Source: Thermofilaceae archaeon
Lineage (GTDB): Archaea > Thermoproteota > Thermoprotei > Thermofilales > Thermofilaceae
NCBI GenBank assembly: GCA_038727095.1
Contig: JAVYWK010000007.1
Coordinates: forward strand, 10,058-74,057
Direction: 5' to 3'
DNA length: 64,000 bases
In this document: piece by piece, positions 38,878-46,228 of the stretch
Layout of the letters: each line of letters begins with the position of its first letter
How positions within the stretch are numbered: position 1 is the stretch's first letter
Made by a program: the position numbers and the translations under genes
Notes under the pieces: generated by a model
Databases searched by the model: none
Seen by the model: the letters and a program-made list of their open reading frames with translations, nothing else
Told to the model about the DNA's origin: nothing

Positions 38878-39756
38878 TCAGGCAAAGTGGCGTTCAAGCG
38901 TCCCTTCTCGCGCTGGTACTAGATCTAGCAGCCTTCTCATCAACTTGAGTTTGAGCTTCTCCCCCAGGTTTACCTTGATAAGCTTGAGGCTTACAGGCGA
39001 TTTAGCCACCATAATTTCGCAATTGCTAAAGTTGCTAGTCAGCGCCCCATCTATCACCACACTACAACCACCCTCGATCACCACCGTCAGTTTACGGGTG
39101 GCGGAAGCCACGAAGGGCTTCAACAGAGCTGAAAACGGCGCTAGAGGAGTTACTATGAATGCCTCAAGCAGAGGGTCCAGAATGGCTCCACCCGCTGACA
39201 GTGCGTAAGCAGTGGAGCCCGTAGGTGTTGCGACGATAAGGCCGTCAAGCCGACCTTCCATTACTAACTCATCGTCCAGGAGTACCCTCGCTCTAAGGAG
39301 GACGCCGCAGCGTGATGTGAGTATCGCCGCCTCATTGGCGAAGATGGAGCGCCAACCACTAATAACCGCCTCACCAACAAGCCGGTTTTCGATCGTGTAC
39401 TTGCCCTGCGCGACGAGCTGGAGCGCTGGAATAGCATTGTCTAACGTCACCTCCATGAGGAAGCCTAGACTATCGCCGCTGTTCACGCCCAGCAGGGGGA
39501 TTACCCCCCGTGTTTCATGAAACACTTTAAGCAGTGTCCCGTCACCACCCACCACTAAGGCAAAATCTGCCCACTTAACTGCCTGCTCAGGGCTTAATCT
39601 CGGAGAGTTACTGGGGAAGGGGCAGGCTGAGTGGATGGCAACCTGGAAACCGTGTTTCTCCAAGAAGTTCTCCAGCATTACGAGTTTCTCCTCGCTTACT
39701 GTCGGTTTTACGTAAACCCATACGCGCGTAAAGCCTCGCACGTGAACCCTATACAC
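38878..39756 (-). CDS. nadK: NAD kinase
   Basis: GGDGTLL, LGFL, ANE, DGLIVATPTGSTAYALSAGG. Confidence 0.95.
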   Translation of the reverse strand: MYRVHVRGFTRVWVYVKPTVSEEKLVMLENFLEKHGFQVAIHSACPFPSNSPRLSPEQAVKWADFALVVGGDGTLLKVFHETRGVIPLLGVNSGDSLGFLMEVTLDNAIPALQLVAQGKYTIENRLVGEAVISGWRSIFANEAAILTSRCGVLLRARVLLDDELVMEGRLDGLIVATPTGSTAYALSAGGAILDPLLEAFIVTPLAPFSALLKPFVASATRKLTVVIEGGCSVVIDGALTSNFSNCEIMVAKSPVSLKLIKVNLGEKLKLKLMRRLLDLVPAREGTLERHFA

Positions 39757-40509: not shown

Positions 40510-41022
40510 ATGAATGAGCAGGGGGGAAGTTCCACGACGCCCCAATACGAAATGTTCAAGGGGCTGCATAGGGCACCCTACAGCCTACTGGAAGCCCTGA
40601 GGAGGGTTCAGGCGGTTTACGGTTACCTACCTCTCGAGGGGATAAAGATGGCAGCCGATTATGTGGGCGTGCCTCTCGCTCAGGCGTACAGTGTCGCGAC
40701 CTTTTACCACCAGTACAGCCTCGAACCAATCGGGAAGTACAGAATACTGGTGTGCATGGGAACTGCCTGCCACTTAAGAGGGAATGGGCTCAATCTCGAG
40801 TTTCTAAGGACCATGCTGAACTTAAAGCCGGGTCAAAAGACTACGCAGGATAGGGCTTTTTCAGTGGAAGAGGCGAGATGCTTTGGCTGCTGCGGTTTAG
40901 CTCCGGTCGTCATGATACTGAAGCCTGACGGGAGCAACGAAATTGTTGGGAGAGCTACGCCCCGCAGCCTTCGAGCGGCCGTGGAGCGTTACCGCAAGCT
41001 TGCGCGGGGTGGTGAAGGTTGA
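40510..41022 (+). CDS. NuoE/HydC-like [2Fe-2S] subunit
   Basis: VATFY, CMGTAC, CFGCCGLAPV. Confidence 0.92.
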   Translation: MNEQGGSSTTPQYEMFKGLHRAPYSLLEALRRVQAVYGYLPLEGIKMAADYVGVPLAQAYSVATFYHQYSLEPIGKYRILVCMGTACHLRGNGLNLEFLRTMLNLKPGQKTTQDRAFSVEEARCFGCCGLAPVVMILKPDGSNEIVGRATPRSLRAAVERYRKLARGGEG

Positions 41023-42992
41023 CGTGGACGTTGCTCGATAGGTGCTGCGAAAAGTGCAGCCACAGTCCGGAGAAGCCGTGCCGCGACTACATCGAGTGCC
41101 GGCTTAACGGGCCGCTCTGCCACAGTGACGAGGAGTGCAGAGAGCGCAGGCGCAGGAGGCTTAAGGAGCTGAAGTACGGGGAGAAGGGTGCGAAGGTAAA
41201 GGTCCCGATGGCTAGCTGCACGCTAGCGACAGGGGCCGAAGGCATCTACAGCGTAGTGCGGAGTACTATTGAAAAACTCGGTTTGGAGGCTACAGTAACA
41301 ATAGCCGGGTGTCACGGGCTGGACTTCATCGATCCTTGGCTGGAGTTCTCAGCTGTAGGAATGCCGACGGCCATCTACGCAAACGTTAGGCCGGGCGACG
41401 TTCCTAAACTCGTTGAAAAGTACTTCGTAAGGCAGGAGGTCGACGGGGCGTTCGCGCTGTGGGAGAGGACAGGGACGGCTAAGGGGGAGGAGAAAGTACC
41501 GCTGCTCAACGAACTGGATTTCTGGAGGAAGCAGGTCAAGTGGGTCTCCCGCAACTGCGGTGTCGTAAACCCGGAGTCGCTTGAAGAGTATGTAGCTGGC
41601 GGAGGATACAGGGGGCTGAGCAGAGCTCTGAAGATAGGGCCTGACGCGGTTATAGACGAGATCCAGAAGAGTGGTCTACGCGGTAGAGGTGGCGCAGGCT
41701 TCCCGACGGGGCTCAAGTGGAGGCTTACAAGGCAGCAGCCGGCGAAGCCCAAGTACGTTATCGCAAACGCTGACGAAGGAGATCCGGGCGCTTTCATGAA
41801 CAGGCTCCTAGCGGAGTCCGACCCCTTCAGGATCGTTGAGGGGCTGACCATCGCAGGCTACGCTATCGGCGCTGAAAGGGGTTTCATCTTCGTGAGAGCA
41901 GAGAAGCCCCTAATGGCGAAGAGGCTTCAAAGGGCTGTTGAGGAAGCGAGGAAGTGCGGTTTGCTGGGTGAAAACATACTCGGTTCAGGCTTCAGCTTCG
42001 ACATAGAAGTCATTCTGAGCGCGGGAGCTTTCGTCTGTGGCGAGGAAACTGCGATGATAGCTGCCATAGAGGGGAAGAGGGCTTGGCCGCGGCAGAGACC
42101 GCCCTACCCCGCCGAGAAGGGGCTCTGGGGGCAACCGACGGCCGTGAATAACGTAGAAACGTTGGCCCACGTTGCGACGATAATGGCGGAAGGGGTGGAA
42201 AAGTTCACCGCGTTGGGTACTGAAAAGAGCAAAGGCACGAAGATGTTCTGCGTAACTGGTTCGGTCAAGAGGGTTGGAGCATACGAAGTTCCGATAGGGG
42301 CTAGCCTCAGGTACCTTGTGGAAGATCTCGCGGGAGGGCCTCCGGATGGAGTGAGAATCAAGGCTGTTCAGATAGGAGGCCCCTCAGGAGGCTGTGTACC
42401 GGCTCAGCTGCTCGATCTGCCGGTTGACTACGAGACGCTGCAATCGGCTGGTGCCATTATGGGAAGCGGTGGTATGGTGGTGATCGGGGATGACAGCTGC
42501 ATGGTAGACGTTGCAAAGTTCTTCCTCACCTTTACTTCCGCTGAATCCTGCGGCAAGTGTATGCCATGCAGAGTGGGGTTGAGGGTCATGTGGAGCATTC
42601 TCGATAAGATCACCCGGGGCGAGGGGGCCGAAGATGACATCACTACACTGCGGCAAGTAGCAGAGACAGTGAAATCGATGAGCCTGTGCGCGCTGGGTGG
42701 TACAGCTCCCAACCCCGTCCTTACAACGCTCCGATACTTCATGGACGAGTACACGGCGCACATTAAGGATAGAGTGTGCCCCGCTAAAGCCTGTTTAGCC
42801 CTAACCAAGTTCATCATCGATGAGGTGAAATGTATAGCCTGCGGGCAGTGCGCCGCGAACTGTCCGGCTAACGCGATTTCGAAGACTGACGGCGGCAAGT
42901 ACCGGATAGACCAGGAGAAGTGTATAAGATGTGGCGTTTGTTTCACAGTCTGCCCCGTTAAAGCAATATCTAAAGCCTCTGGATCGAGGTGA
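41019..42992 (+). CDS. NuoF/HydB-like FMN/NAD(P)-binding subunit with C-terminal 2[4Fe-4S]
   Basis: GRGGAGFPTG, NADEGDPGAFM, CGEETA, ESCGKCMPCR, two CxxCxxCxxxCP. Confidence 0.93.
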   Translation: MTWTLLDRCCEKCSHSPEKPCRDYIECRLNGPLCHSDEECRERRRRRLKELKYGEKGAKVKVPMASCTLATGAEGIYSVVRSTIEKLGLEATVTIAGCHGLDFIDPWLEFSAVGMPTAIYANVRPGDVPKLVEKYFVRQEVDGAFALWERTGTAKGEEKVPLLNELDFWRKQVKWVSRNCGVVNPESLEEYVAGGGYRGLSRALKIGPDAVIDEIQKSGLRGRGGAGFPTGLKWRLTRQQPAKPKYVIANADEGDPGAFMNRLLAESDPFRIVEGLTIAGYAIGAERGFIFVRAEKPLMAKRLQRAVEEARKCGLLGENILGSGFSFDIEVILSAGAFVCGEETAMIAAIEGKRAWPRQRPPYPAEKGLWGQPTAVNNVETLAHVATIMAEGVEKFTALGTEKSKGTKMFCVTGSVKRVGAYEVPIGASLRYLVEDLAGGPPDGVRIKAVQIGGPSGGCVPAQLLDLPVDYETLQSAGAIMGSGGMVVIGDDSCMVDVAKFFLTFTSAESCGKCMPCRVGLRVMWSILDKITRGEGAEDDITTLRQVAETVKSMSLCALGGTAPNPVLTTLRYFMDEYTAHIKDRVCPAKACLALTKFIIDEVKCIACGQCAANCPANAISKTDGGKYRIDQEKCIRCGVCFTVCPVKAISKASGSR

Positions 42993-42998
42993 TGAGCC

Positions 42999-43655
42999 TT
43001 GGTGAAGGTAAAGATTGATGGTAGAATCGTGGAGGTCGAACCGGGCACAACAATACTAGAGGCCGCCGAGAAGGCGGGGATCAGCATACCCAAGCTCTGC
43101 GTAGTACCCGGCTTGTACGAATCATCGAGCTGCCGTCTCTGCGTTGTTAAAACCCCCGCGGGCCGTCTCTTCCCTGCCTGCAACTACCGGGTTTACAGGG
43201 ACGAGGAGTTCATCGCCTCATCACACGATCTCTGGGAAATGAGAAGAGTGAACTTCGAGCTGGTCTTGAAGTTCCACAGGATCGAGTGCTGGCAGTGCGA
43301 GAGGAAGAGCGCTTGCTCACTGGTGGAATTATCCAAGGAGCTCATGGTGGAGGGCATACCCGTGTGCTCTGAGTGCCCGCTGCCGAGAGATGAGTGCTTA
43401 CTTCGTAAAGGCGTGTTGTGCTTAGGGATGATTACCCAATCGGGTTGCAACGCAGAATGTATAGTCGGCGGCGGCGAATGTTGGGGTTGCAGGGGGCCAA
43501 TAGCGAGAGCCGACGTCCTGGAGCGAGCTTTCGAGAGGTACGCTGAGCTGGGCTTCAATTCACGGTTGGTTCTAAGTAAAGCGGAGATCTTCTGGAACTC
43601 GCTGGAAGAGTTCGCGATCGTTAAAAGAGTTGCTAACGAAGGTGGGGTGAAATGA
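42999..43655 (+). CDS. FeS subunit: NuoG/HydA N-terminal [2Fe-2S] and His-ligated cluster fused to C-terminal module of [NiFe] small subunit
   Basis: IPKLC..CRLCVV..PAC; HRIECWQC..C; VCSEC..CLL..CLGMIT..GC..C..CWGCRG. Confidence 0.8.
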   Translation: MVKVKIDGRIVEVEPGTTILEAAEKAGISIPKLCVVPGLYESSSCRLCVVKTPAGRLFPACNYRVYRDEEFIASSHDLWEMRRVNFELVLKFHRIECWQCERKSACSLVELSKELMVEGIPVCSECPLPRDECLLRKGVLCLGMITQSGCNAECIVGGGECWGCRGPIARADVLERAFERYAELGFNSRLVLSKAEIFWNSLEEFAIVKRVANEGGVK

Positions 43656-44938
43656 GCGGTAAGTTGGCTCTATTCATCGAGGAGGTTCCGGCCGTCGCGG
43701 GAAAGGTCAATGTTAAGATCGAGGGGGAGCAAACAAAAGTGAGAGTCGAGTTCGGCGTGGCCCAGGAGCCAAGGTTCTTCGAAAGGTTCCTTAAAGGCAG
43801 ACCAGTAACTCTAGCACCCTGGGTCATGTCGAGGATTTGCGGTGTCTGCAGCCAAGTCCACCTCACGTGCTCGATAGAAGCCGCTGAGAAAGCGCTAGGC
43901 CTGAAACCAAAACCGGAGGTATTCTCGCTTAGAGAGGTGGCGAAGGGCCTCGAAATAGTCCAGAATAACGTCGTTCACGTGCTCATGTCCATACCCGACT
44001 TTACGGGCCACGGTAACGTTGTGGAGTTCTCTAAGGCCCATCCAAGCCTTTTCGGCACGCTCATGGCTGTGAACTCGTCGCTACTCGAGGTTAGTAAGAG
44101 GGTGGCTGGAAGGTTTGTCCACCTGCCTAGCCTGGGGGTGGCTACGCACGGCAAACCGGTAAGCGTGCACGAATTGATTTCAGCCAGCAAAATGCTGAAG
44201 GGCGTCGCAAGCAGCTTGATGGAAACGGCGGAGGAGCTGAGCAAGGTGTGGGGGCCACTTTGCGAGGGCTTTAAGGACCCAGCGCCCACGTACTGCGTGC
44301 TTAACGCGTCGCAGCGGAGGTATCCCTTCTTCTCCGGCGAGTTGCTCTTCTCCGATGGAAGGGTCGTGAGGGCTGGGGAGTACGCGTACGCGCTGGAGGA
44401 GCTCACAAGCCCCTACTCGAATGCCCACTACGTCCTCTACAAGGGGGAACCCTTCTACGTAGGATCAAGAGCCAGGCTTATGGCCTACCGGAGCTTTCTA
44501 CCCAAAGAGATAATCGACCTTGAGAAGACACTTGCCGTGGATTTCTCCAACCCCTTTGATAACGTTAAAGCGCAGTATATCGAAGCGGCGTACGTGGCGG
44601 GCCTATTGGCGGAAACCTTAGACGAGCTAGCGTCGAAGGGTGAGGGAGTGCACCCCCACGTCCTAACGGAGTGCCCCGAGGTTGACGGTGAAGGCGTGGG
44701 ACTGGCCACAGCGCCGCGAGGCGTCCTGATACACCACTACAGGGTTGCTAAGGGGAGGTTGGAGTACGCCAACATCATCACTCCAACCGTTATGAACGCG
44801 AGGCACATAGAGGTCACGGGCGAAGCCCTCGTAAAGTGGGCCGTCGAGAACGGCATAGAGGACGAGGGGCGCATCAAGCGTTTGGTAGCAGCACTCGTGA
44901 GAGCTTATGATCCATGCCTCCCCTGCTCCGTGCACTAG
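43652..44938 (+). CDS. [NiFe]-hydrogenase large subunit (group 3-like)
   Basis: L1 SRICGVCSQVH, APRGVLIHHY, L2 YDPCLPCSVH. Confidence 0.92.
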   Translation: MSGKLALFIEEVPAVAGKVNVKIEGEQTKVRVEFGVAQEPRFFERFLKGRPVTLAPWVMSRICGVCSQVHLTCSIEAAEKALGLKPKPEVFSLREVAKGLEIVQNNVVHVLMSIPDFTGHGNVVEFSKAHPSLFGTLMAVNSSLLEVSKRVAGRFVHLPSLGVATHGKPVSVHELISASKMLKGVASSLMETAEELSKVWGPLCEGFKDPAPTYCVLNASQRRYPFFSGELLFSDGRVVRAGEYAYALEELTSPYSNAHYVLYKGEPFYVGSRARLMAYRSFLPKEIIDLEKTLAVDFSNPFDNVKAQYIEAAYVAGLLAETLDELASKGEGVHPHVLTECPEVDGEGVGLATAPRGVLIHHYRVAKGRLEYANIITPTVMNARHIEVTGEALVKWAVENGIEDEGRIKRLVAALVRAYDPCLPCSVH

Positions 44939-46228
44939 GTGGTTGGAATGAAGGTGGCCTTCTTCTCCTTCGGTGCTTGCGAAGGCTGCAGGTACAGAAT
45001 AGTCGGTGAACTGCACAAGCTGACGGCGCTCCCCAACATCGAAATAGTCAGGGAACCACTGCTGGGGCTCACCGAAGACACCGAGTACGACATCGCCGTT
45101 GTGGAAGGGGCGGTCACAACGCCGGATGTTGAGAAGCTCAAGCGGATCAGGAGTAAGGCGAAGTACTTGATCGCACTGGGCAGCTGCGCGAGACTGGGTG
45201 GGATTACGACGCTGGGGTACAGGTTAGGCCTAAAACTGGAGGAGTACGAGGCTAAAGGGTACGCTGACGCTCTTCCGCTCCACCGATTCGTCAAAATCGA
45301 CAGCCACGTGAGGGGCTGTCCAGCCAGTGTGGACGAGTTGGTCACTGTTCTCAACGCGTTTTCCCTGGGGTTCAACCCCTCGAAGTATGAAAGACGCTTC
45401 GAGTACGAGCGCTTAACCCAGGATCTCGTAATCAGCGATGACTTCCTGAAGCTGGATCCTGGGAAGTGCATAGTGTGTGGAAGGTGCGTTGAGTTCTGCG
45501 GTCTTGTGGAAGCTCACGCGCTAACCCAAGCGTTTAGAGGGTTCCGAGTTATAGTGAGTACACCGGCACAACTGCCCTTCCTCGAGGCGGGCTGCATCAG
45601 ATGCGGGCTTTGCGCTGCATACTGTCCCGTCGCAGCCGTGACGTACAGGAGCGACGTAGAGGAGGCGATCAAGCTGATGCGCGAGGGGGGCACTGCTGTC
45701 GTAGAGACGTACGCACTGGAAAGCGCAGCCACCGCGCTCGGTGTTAAGCCCGGCCAAGTACTCTCACTGCTAACAGAGCTCGGCTTCAGCAGCGCAACAG
45801 TCGTTAACCCCCTCGAGGGAACGCTGAAGTACGACGGCATTGTACCCTTCAGCTCGGCCGAGGAAAGATGGTTAAAGAAGCGTTTCCCGAACGCGCCCGT
45901 AAAGGGGCGCGTCAAGCTTGAAGGTGAGAGAGGCACGGTTATCATAACGGCTTGCGCTGCAAGGAAGGAGGATCACAAGCCGGCTATAACGGCGCACGAG
46001 CTTGTTGAGCTTGCAAAAAACTCTAGGATCACTGTGACCGACCTACCCGAGCAGCCGGTGAACACGAGCAACATCGAGGGTATTAAAGTCGCCGTAGGGC
46101 CAACAGCTTGCGCTAAAGCCGTCGAGGAGTACCTTAAAGGTTCCGTAAGCCGAGTAGTCCTGCAGATCTGCCCAGGAGGATGCTCGCGAGGATCAGGAAG
46201 CCCCTACAAGGTACTGGTTACTAGATAA
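44939..46228 (+). CDS. [NiFe] small-subunit domain + 2[4Fe-4S] + degenerate [FeFe]-hydrogenase H-domain fusion
   Basis: CEGC, VEGAV, LGSCA, RGCP; CIVCGRC and CIRCGLC ferredoxin; ITACAARKED, AITAHEL, QICPGGCSRGSG. Confidence 0.8.
   Translation: MVGMKVAFFSFGACEGCRYRIVGELHKLTALPNIEIVREPLLGLTEDTEYDIAVVEGAVTTPDVEKLKRIRSKAKYLIALGSCARLGGITTLGYRLGLKLEEYEAKGYADALPLHRFVKIDSHVRGCPASVDELVTVLNAFSLGFNPSKYERRFEYERLTQDLVISDDFLKLDPGKCIVCGRCVEFCGLVEAHALTQAFRGFRVIVSTPAQLPFLEAGCIRCGLCAAYCPVAAVTYRSDVEEAIKLMREGGTAVVETYALESAATALGVKPGQVLSLLTELGFSSATVVNPLEGTLKYDGIVPFSSAEERWLKKRFPNAPVKGRVKLEGERGTVIITACAARKEDHKPAITAHELVELAKNSRITVTDLPEQPVNTSNIEGIKVAVGPTACAKAVEEYLKGSVSRVVLQICPGGCSRGSGSPYKVLVTR

Follow-up and report, generated by a model that had tools for sequence, protein, structure and literature searches.

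Hybrid hydrogenases that combine [NiFe] and [FeFe] modules were described in 2024 as the group F [FeFe] / 3f [NiFe] enzymes (Greening et al. 2024, Cell, PMC11216029), and they came as a surprise; what two seemingly redundant catalysts do for the physiology within one complex is puzzling. Group F is there a HyhS-HydA fusion encoded beside hyhL, hydB, hydC and a four-cluster hydD, and the class was reported from 21 archaeal genomes, Thermoproteia included (PMC11216029). Here we describe a five-gene hydrogenase cluster at positions 40510-46228 of a 64,000-nt stretch of DNA from a Thermofilaceae archaeon (GenBank assembly GCA_038727095.1, contig JAVYWK010000007.1, positions 10,058 to 74,057, forward strand; this whole stretch is called the window). 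The locus is a newly found member of the published group F/3f class, within its short-form clade, and not a new kind of enzyme. Judging from its sequence and from analogy with a bacterial complex, it likely encodes a [NiFe]-catalysed, Bfu-type hydrogenase coupled to NAD(H) and ferredoxin, in which the H-like domain of the fusion keeps at most one FeS cluster.

Several features of the published systems bear on this reading. In Table S2 of Greening et al. 2024 the order hydC-hydB-nuoG-like-hyhL-hydA is found in Sulfolobales NBVN01, Caldarchaeales, Brockarchaeia DTQO01 and an Odinarchaeote, and the contig of Thermofilaceae B17-G15 is fragmentary, with hyhL-hydA alone. The three Thermoplasmata SG8-5 entries of group F in that table are 571-591 aa long, match Fe_hyd_lg_C and read FTSWCPSA or FASWCPSA at the L1 motif; in the two fully flanked SG8-5 clusters hydA leads, and hydC, hydB, the nuoG-like gene and hyhL come after it. 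Th1 and Th2, the enzymes produced and then given [2Fe]adt for maturation, come from SG8-5, and the biochemical tests of that study covered long forms only (PMC11216029). Entry into the class followed an operational screen that combined a positive HydA hidden Markov model (HMM) score with the CxxxC of the catalytic centre, and dual-site catalysis was proposed for group F (PMC11216029). The other close system is the bacterial NiFe-HydABCSL of Acetomicrobium mobile, whose HydA lacks the H-cluster motif and has FeS cluster A5 in its place, and which bifurcates electrons (Feng 2022, PMC8880783).

Two reciprocal chimeras around a [NiFe] large subunit

Five open reading frames (ORFs) on the + strand encode proteins of 170, 657, 218, 428 and 429 aa, and from one junction to the next the neighbours overlap by 4 nt, stand 6 nt apart, overlap by 4 nt again and finally abut directly. 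The genes and their domains are as follows.

40510..41022, + strand: hydC, NuoE/HoxE-like thioredoxin-fold [2Fe-2S] subunit, 170 aa (PF01257)
41019..42992, + strand: hydB, Bfu-type NuoF-like flavoprotein, 657 aa (PF01512, PF10531, PF10589, Fer4)
41028..41174, + strand: N-terminal CCxxC "NuoF prefix" domain of HydB, residues 4-52 (NF040902)
42813..42971, + strand: C-terminal 2x[4Fe-4S] ferredoxin domain of HydB, B3/B4 equivalent, proposed ferredoxin site (Fer4, alignment to 7t2r_B)
42999..43655, + strand: hydD, chimeric four-cluster conduit subunit, 218 aa (matches to HydA1 and to the delta subunit of soluble hydrogenase I, SHI)
43652..44938, + strand: hyhL, group 3 [NiFe] large subunit, 428 aa (PF00374)
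44939..46228, + strand: hyhS-hydA fusion gene, 429 aa with the start at GTG 44939, 426 aa with the more probable start at ATG 44948
44948..45382, + strand: [NiFe] small-subunit N-half of the fusion, proximal-cluster domain, residues 4-148 (PF01058, SHI delta)
45446..45646, + strand: HydA-type 2x[4Fe-4S] F-domain of the fusion, residues 170-236 (TIGR02512, A6 model, 8a6t_A)
45647..46225, + strand: reduced H-domain-like module of the fusion, about 195 aa (HydA fold match, conservation, motif comparison)

The original prediction, made from the letters alone, had called a tightly coupled operon of a NuoE-like and a NuoF-like subunit, an FeS subunit, a [NiFe] large subunit with intact CxxC pairs and a small subunit fused to a ferredoxin and an H-domain relic. 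The operon lies where it was placed, its gaps and overlaps amounting to a few nt, and the calls for the single genes agree with the Pfam, NCBIfam, phmmer, motif and fold evidence given below. As for the start of the fusion, its 426-aa homologues begin MKVAFF..., matching ATG 44948 rather than GTG 44939; the ATG is probably the true start and would leave a 9-nt spacer after hyhL.

The fusion protein matches PF01058 at residues 14-140 (E 2.4e-19) and then Fer4 domains in Pfam, and the [FeFe] hydrogenase models of NCBIfam (TIGR02512, A6) match residues 158-287. By phmmer, residues 153-276 align to residues 123-249 of Thermoanaerobacter kivui HydA1 (8a6t_A), with a weak second stretch pairing residues 383-423, around the CPGGC, with HydA1 466-508. 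PF02906 (Fe_hyd_lg_C) had no match in the fusion or in the whole genome and was matched in two control genomes; taking this null as the absence of an H-domain fold was rejected, since the fold search finds HydA. An AlphaFold2 model of the fusion has a mean predicted local distance difference test (pLDDT) score of 86.4, with ten-residue blocks from 211 to 420 averaging 87-98 and the block 421-429 averaging 81. Its best Foldseek matches are HydA chains (8a6t_A, E 2.2e-14; Clostridium pasteurianum hydrogenase I, CpI, E ~1e-12). With VIA-align, model residues 93-429 superpose on Thermotoga maritima HydA (Z 23.4, root-mean-square deviation (rmsd) 4.1, 278 residues), residues 166-429 on Desulfovibrio desulfuricans HydA 24-394 (Z 21.1, rmsd 3.2, 251 residues) and residues 2-153 on the Pyrococcus furiosus SHI delta chain 9e1j_A (Z 19.5, rmsd 2.7). 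A C-terminal domain structurally unlike HydA had been named in advance as the finding that would overturn the prediction, and Z scores of 21-23 speak for the likeness. On this sequence and model evidence, the C-terminal ~280 residues of the fusion are HydA-derived despite the PF02906 null. One polypeptide joins an N-terminal group 3 small subunit to a C-terminal HydA-derived part, and hyhL, hydB, hydC and a nuoG-like hydD are contiguous with it, as in group F/3f.

HydD is the counterpart of this fusion. It matches PF13510 (E 2.7e-12) and, at 22.5 bits and under the cut-off of 27, PF10588; in agreement with the FeS subunit originally called, Pfam and NCBIfam place a [2Fe-2S] domain and a His-ligated [4Fe-4S] domain in it. 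Its residues 1-123 match Acetobacterium woodii HydA1 5-126 (E 4e-20), residues 120-198 match P. furiosus SHI delta 160-241 (E 5e-10), and the NCBIfam matches cover positions 1-121 of the A6 model and 154-237 of ShyD. Conversely, fusion residues 4-148 match SHI delta 4-157 (E 3e-16), and from residue 153 on the fusion matches HydA from residue 123. Because the halves of HydD and of the fusion match reciprocally, HydA and the [NiFe] small subunit appear each to have been cut once and joined crosswise, with hyhL sitting between the two chimeric genes. The small-subunit ligands are split over both genes, four proximal Cys in the fusion and eight C-half Cys in HydD, and across the two the ligands of the proximal, medial and distal clusters of a group 3 small subunit are all present. 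Conservation of the fusion was followed in alignment A2, which holds the window protein and 46 short-form homologues and leaves out P0001 (99% identical) and P0019 (which ends before L3). The proximal-domain Cys (C14, C17, C83, C127) and the F-domain Cys (C177/180/183/187 and C219/222/225/229) are invariant in 47 of 47 sequences; in HydD the ligands (four Cys, then His and three Cys, then eight Cys) are invariant in all six aligned sequences.

HyhL matches PF00374 (E 2.8e-25) and carries RICGVC (C63, C66) and a terminal DPCLPCSVH (C422, C425), both CxxC pairs being intact. Over its full length it is closest to group 3b (5yxy_A, 159 bits; P. furiosus SHI alpha, 156 bits), and it scores 79 bits only against A. 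mobile HydL. That the large subunit is, by sequence, nearest to ordinary group 3b enzymes is a correction to the original prediction. HyhL stops exactly at the His of DPCxxCxxH (44912-44938), with no C-terminal extension, as it does in six of the eight loci of relatives with an upstream hyhL; in the other two, L012 and L013, the protein runs on for 10 and 5 aa. A HycI/HyaD-type endopeptidase (PF01750) was not found in the genome, and as HyhL already ends at its mature C-terminus no protease would be needed. A search for HypC, HypD and HypE found HypD (395 bits), HypC and a HypE-like AIR-synthase-fold gene clustered on contig C20, and among the 41 related genomes HypD exceeds its cut-off in 39, with every one of the 13 fusion carriers among these. 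Together, the CxxC pairs and the HypD-HypC-HypE cluster indicate that the [NiFe] site can be made. The organism encodes a second [NiFe]-type large subunit of 393 aa on contig C6 (L008 667-1848, minus strand; PF00346, PF00374), which is NuoD-like, has RICGIC and DPCICC and lies among nuoA, nuoB, nuoC and nuoH homologues. By its sequence it is probably a membrane-bound group 4 hydrogenase, which would give the organism two [NiFe] enzymes. That the hyp genes serve the five-gene enzyme alone was rejected on account of this group-4-type large subunit with both CxxC pairs.

The diaphorase module bears on whether the enzyme would bifurcate. HydC matches PF01257 (E 4.9e-38) and, each under its equivalog cut-off, the HoxE (119 bits) and nuoE_fam (112 bits) models of NCBIfam. 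HydB matches PF01512 (E 4.5e-45), PF10589 (E 2.9e-31), SLBB (PF10531) and a C-terminal Fer4 at residues 599-651. The four domains that define BfuB are flavin mononucleotide (FMN), SLBB, NuoF-4Fe4S and ferredoxin-type 4Fe-4S (Schut 2022), and Pfam finds all four in this protein. HydB scores 694 bits against NfnB 9n5u_B, 679 bits against A. mobile NiFe-HydB 7t2r_B (over residues 66-652) and 605-623 bits against HydB of FeFe-HydABC complexes, compared with 387 bits for the non-bifurcating Nqo1 and 260 bits for HoxF, where the match is confined to the core. The unusual B2 cluster ligands of A. mobile HydB (C438, C476, H525, C531, C536, with Cys or Thr at 476; Feng 2022, PMC8880783) correspond to C494, T532, H581, C587 and C592 here, Thr occupying the semi-conserved position. 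The B3/B4 motifs are also present; that the C-terminal 2x[4Fe-4S] domain would serve as the ferredoxin site follows Feng 2022 (PMC8880783). By these matches and motifs HydB/HydC would be a complete Bfu-type module: HydB has the FMN site, cluster B1, the B2 site and the 2x[4Fe-4S] domain at its C-terminus, and HydC contributes a [2Fe-2S] cluster.

A non-bifurcating NAD(P)-linked soluble hydrogenase of 3b/3d-like type, with HydBC as a simple diaphorase and no role for the additional FeS domains, is nevertheless conceivable and would fit the group 3b affinity of HyhL as well as the partial matches of the HoxE and HoxU models. It would also fit a change at the B5-type site: at HydB ~98-102 one Cys of GCxGxC is Asp in the window and in locus L009 (GCHGLD / GCFGLD) and is kept in A. 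mobile HydB, NfnB, L012, L013 and L014, and the window/L009 sub-lineage may have a modified B5 cluster or none at all. We hold this reading unlikely. HydB matches the bifurcating B subunits end to end (679-694 bits) and its B2 ligands are conserved, whereas non-bifurcating homologues are described as missing clusters B2-B5 (Schut 2022) and as lacking both the N-terminal domain and the 2x[4Fe-4S] domain at the C-terminus (Schut 2022; Feng 2022, PMC8880783). Separately, the HydB prefix domain scores 79.8 bits against NF040902 (cut-off 45), the sole NCBIfam model to exceed its cut-off. This domain has seven Cys and a conserved His, is kept in four of five aligned HydB (window, L009, L012, L014) and falls outside the region alignable to any solved Bfu B subunit.

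The reduced H-like domain and its clade

For the H-like domain CpI served as the reference, residue equivalences being taken from two independent MAFFT alignments with group A HydA and CpI numbers from the phmmer alignment. The H-cluster Cys ligands of CpI are C300, C355, C499 and C503, with C300 as the L1 ligand; C299 is the proton-transfer Cys, and the positions of proton transfer and of the pocket are C299, E279, E282, R286 and S319, P324/Q325 and the F417 region. Titles of PDB entries list CpI variants at C299, E279, E282, S319 and R286. In the window protein C339 is the equivalent of C355 (L2), and C411 and C415, which form the CxxxC motif C411-PGG-C415, are those of C499 and C503 (L3). 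At L1, S305 aligns to C300 and F304 to C299. Three of the four H-cluster Cys ligands of a catalytic HydA (C339, C411, C415) are present, and throughout A2 position 305 is Ser (47/47), whereas position 304 is Cys in one sequence (P0007) and Phe in the window. Beyond L1, the three segments that carry proton-transfer and pocket residues are deleted. Counted over the window and nine short-form representatives, the short forms retain 4-8 of 22 residues of the helix equivalent to E279/E282/R286 (long forms 16-18), 6-8 of 23 residues of the SPQQ loop with the S319/P324/Q325 equivalents (long forms 16-19) and 0-9 of 55 residues of the GGVMEAALR segment (long forms 51-53). The long forms have Cys at the L1 ligand position.

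These features follow the tree of the family. A word-index search gave 48 full-length homologues of 413-473 aa and 34-99% identity, the named ones from Thermofilaceae, Thermoprotei, Desulfurococcaceae, Ignisphaera, Odinarchaeota and Asgardarchaeia; the nearest named relative is P0019 (57% identity). When 1.84 billion representative proteins were searched exhaustively with a profile, 87 came back at E <= 1e-30, among them 24 fusion-type clusters, one of which is truncated, and the short-form clade accounts for 10 of the 23 full-length representative clusters of that library. A maximum-likelihood tree was built from the window, the 23 representatives and three group A sequences, with P0125 and other fragments left out. 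In it the 11 short rows without the L1 Cys fall together on one side of a branch (support 99/96), and they include P0109, a representative whose L1 stretch is identical to a published Thermofilaceae sequence. Their sisters are P0113 (PCSEA) and P0114 (PCCYS), the joint clade having support 99/98, and the 11 long and intermediate forms make up a separate group (98/97). If group A is taken as outgroup, parsimony suggests that the L1 Cys loss is a derived state within the short clade. What is new here is the window's place in this well-supported clade of short forms without the L1 Cys and the three H-domain segments.

Some members of the family show other combinations. P0113 (501 aa) and P0114 (487 aa) are without the SPQQ and GGVMEAALR segments, yet keep the L1 Cys, and to judge from this they look like intermediates between long and short forms. 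The L1 states are graded, with CC in P0114, CS in P0113 and P0007, and xS in the window. The C-S pair, that is Cys at the CpI-299 and Ser at the CpI-300 position, found in the fusion-family proteins P0113 and P0007 also has parallels outside the family, the stretch TSCSPGW standing at L1 in three trimeric-type group A HydA matches (P0084, P0058, P0050). No relevant paper on the string TSCSP was among the literature matches listed. A statement that the short forms miss the L1 Cys was likewise not found in the literature consulted; the logos of Figure S4 and the supplements of Greening et al. 2024 may cover the point.

In a dual-site hybrid, as proposed for group F by Greening et al. 2024, both the [NiFe] site and an H-cluster-like di-iron site would be catalytic, the cofactor of the latter being supplied through an unknown archaeal pathway. 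Such a hybrid could draw on the H-domain fold, on the invariance of C339, C411 and C415, the last being the bridging-Cys equivalent, and on the published treatment of the class: a Thermofilaceae protein of the same type, with 445 aa and a bit score of 24, is listed as group F (PMC11216029), and the window has the CPGGC. As for maturation, HydG and HydE gave no match in the window genome (1.86 Mb assembly, 92% complete) and HydF gave weak GTPase matches below cut-off, and HydG is above cut-off in none of the 41 related genomes; the genome search suggested along with the original prediction thereby turned up HypC, HypD and a HypE-like gene, and not the HydEFG maturases of a catalytic [FeFe] hydrogenase. 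Most archaea with active [FeFe] enzymes are nonetheless without HydEFG (PMC11216029). Against a second catalyst stand the 46 of 47 sequences without Cys at either L1 position, the deletion of the proton-transfer helix, the SPQQ loop and the GGVMEAALR segment, and the missing PF02906 match. The enzymes tested, Th1 and Th2, come from SG8-5, whose entries in Table S2 have 571-591 aa and the L1 Cys, and the domain of ~195 aa compares with ~300 aa, approximated from kDa, for the 33-kDa "ultraminimal" group E enzyme (PMC11216029). Taking both sides together, we regard dual-site catalysis in the short forms as rather improbable.

Proposed electron path and what speaks against it

We favour instead a cytoplasmic five-subunit enzyme in which H2 would be made or split at the [NiFe] site of HyhL. 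Electrons would pass from [NiFe] to the proximal [4Fe-4S] cluster in the small-subunit N-half of the fusion, on to the medial and distal clusters in the C-terminal half of HydD, and from there through the His-ligated [4Fe-4S] and the [2Fe-2S] cluster of the HydD N-half to the HydB/HydC flavin core. Most likely H2 would be coupled to NAD(H) and ferredoxin together, with bifurcation on uptake and confurcation on H2 evolution, as in A. mobile. The F-domain and the H-like domain would be the vestige of an [FeFe] hydrogenase. The latter probably binds one [4Fe-4S] cluster through C339, C411 and C415, the fourth ligand being the invariant S305 or E308. Its di-iron subsite and proton path are probably gone, and it would act as a side-branch FeS cluster or structural scaffold and not as a second catalyst. 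Motif comparison and analogy thereby support the earlier proposal that [NiFe] is the catalyst and the [FeFe] part a relay or scaffold. The genes present, the homologies of their domains, the fold, the conserved residues and the maturation genes found or missing are what the analysis shows; that the subunits assemble, as their close homology to solved complexes suggests, which cofactors they hold, the route of the electrons, bifurcation and the direction in the cell are inferred.

Several observations weigh against this reading, and the B5-type substitution set out above is one of them. Eight residues of the C-terminal domain (S305, E308, C339, T351, E354, C411, C415, G420) are invariant in 47 of 47 short forms. 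As this holds among sequences with identity as low as 33%, the H-like site appears to be under selection, and it could do more than relay electrons. Ser at the CpI C300 position also occurs in the solved A. woodii HydA1 (7q4v_A, TSCSPGW), hence Ser at L1 alone does not exclude an H-cluster. In Greening et al. 2024 the 445-aa fusion of Thermofilaceae B17-G15 sp003649495 was counted as group F with an HMM score of 24, and the condensed H-domains of group E were found active (PMC11216029). A full HydEFG set is found in only five of the 130 archaeal genomes that encode [FeFe] hydrogenases, and genomes of active enzymes are among those counted (PMC11216029), which makes the absence of HydEFG weak evidence. 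The AlphaFold2 model is a monomer computed from 47 homologues without cofactors, and the case for bifurcation is one of sequence likeness.

In the boldest reading, the H-like domain would still build, without HydEFG, a di-iron site for catalysis or H2 sensing on a [4Fe-4S] cluster held by one Ser and three Cys. We give this little credence; if true, the domain of ~195 residues would be much smaller than any other known H-domain and would add a second active site to the complex. In a related bold reading, the short forms would retain the domain as it was before it acquired an H-cluster, and the tree of [FeFe] hydrogenases could be rooted with them.

Distribution, surroundings and comparison with known systems

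Of 41 related genomes, the window's own counted, 13 carry the fusion at full length; it occurs in five of five genomes of the window's genus and in none of the eight of a genus with mostly closed genomes. A contig scan was dominated by bacterial HydA, with at least seven archaeal full-length loci (L009-L015) among the matches listed. At least half of the sampled words recur in each of eleven sequencing runs, which belong to five studies; every run bears the label hot springs metagenome, and one may be the source sample. The original prediction had called the enzyme a strongly reduced hyperthermophilic variant; the reduction stands, and "hyperthermophilic" has behind it the hot-spring labels and the names of relatives. 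In one metatranscriptome library, contigs 90-99% identical to the operon fill all 30 of its bins, and one contig of 1882 nt spans the end of hydB, hydD and hyhL, a hint, given possible DNA carry-over, that the operon is expressed in a close relative. A relic operon in decay, no longer expressed or assembled, would suit the reduced H-like domain and the hyaD/hycI protease not found in the genome, and is hardly credible: nothing supports it directly, the five frames are open and the metal ligands intact, the fusion is kept full-length in the relatives just counted, the metatranscriptome contigs offer a weak hint of transcription, and HyhL, ending at its mature C-terminus, requires no protease.

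The cluster is flanked by unrelated housekeeping genes (S17e, a minus-strand NAD kinase, aIF5A, a major facilitator superfamily (MFS) transporter and a family B DNA polymerase), and since these are unrelated the five genes form a self-contained cluster. The NAD kinase gene lies at 38878-39756 on the minus strand, ~750 nt upstream of the hydrogenase genes. In Table S2 of Greening et al. 2024 nadk is also near the group F cluster in two Sulfolobales NBVN01 genomes; the shared proximity may be coincidence. Predicted sigma-70 promoters (5, against 3.0 expected) and terminators (2, against 5.9) are at chance level, with models ill-suited to archaea.

If our preferred reading of a [NiFe]-catalysed enzyme with an FeS remnant is right, Thermofilaceae-like, Desulfurococcales, Asgard and other archaea hold an archaeal counterpart of the bacterial NiFe-HydABCSL, and the locus is a thermostable candidate for a bifurcating [NiFe] enzyme. 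The clade structure suggests that the published group F lumps two things, long forms in which an H-cluster is plausible and a short-form clade with an FeS remnant. The graded L1 states could serve as natural intermediates for the loss or gain of the H-cluster site.

Compared with the group F short forms of Table S2, such as the entries from Thermofilaceae B17-G15, Sulfolobales NBVN01, Caldarchaeales and Odinarchaeota, the window shares gene order, the length class of the fusion and the P-x-S-x-A-E-type L1, and its genus is missing from the 21 group F rows of that table. The class had been recognised as known in the original prediction, and rightly so (PMC11216029); the reduced short form, there put forward as a variant of its own, is itself already in the published data set. 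Greening et al. 2024 appear to treat all group F as true H-cluster enzymes, whereas the short forms studied here are without the L1 Cys and the three pocket segments. With the long form, represented by SG8-5 UBA147, the window has in common the fusion of HyhS, F-domain and H-domain and the partner genes hydB, hydC, hydD and hyhL. The long form differs in having hydA first, a PF02906 match, an L1 of SWCPSA with the ligand Cys and near full-length segments, and the UBA147 HydB is described with a GltA domain, of which Pfam finds none in the window HydB.

Outside group F, the A. mobile NiFe-HydABCSL (7T2R/7T30) likewise has five subunits, a Bfu-type HydB with HydC, and [NiFe] as sole catalyst. 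That enzyme is bacterial, its HydA is a single chain of 692 aa and its HydS a separate protein of 179 aa with one cluster, whereas in the window the parts of HydA and HyhS are distributed crosswise over two chimeric chains, and ligands for three clusters survive in the small subunit. With its subunits organised otherwise, the window enzyme may work alike and is not a member of the A. mobile type. Group 3b (P. furiosus SHI and Thermococcus kodakarensis; 9nez, 9e1j, 5yxy) is where HyhL and both small-subunit halves find their best matches in sequence and fold, but the SHI partners are the beta and gamma subunits (sulfite-reductase-like) and not NuoEF/Bfu, and SHI delta is a single chain. The FeFe-HydABC complexes (7P5H, 8A6T, 7Q4V) and the archaeal Nfn-Bfu (9N5U) match in the HydB/HydC core (605-694 bits), and from this group the N-terminal clusters of HydA are recognisable in HydD and the F-domain in the fusion. 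FeFe-HydABC, however, has a complete catalytic H-domain of ~300 aa plus tail and is without a [NiFe] module.

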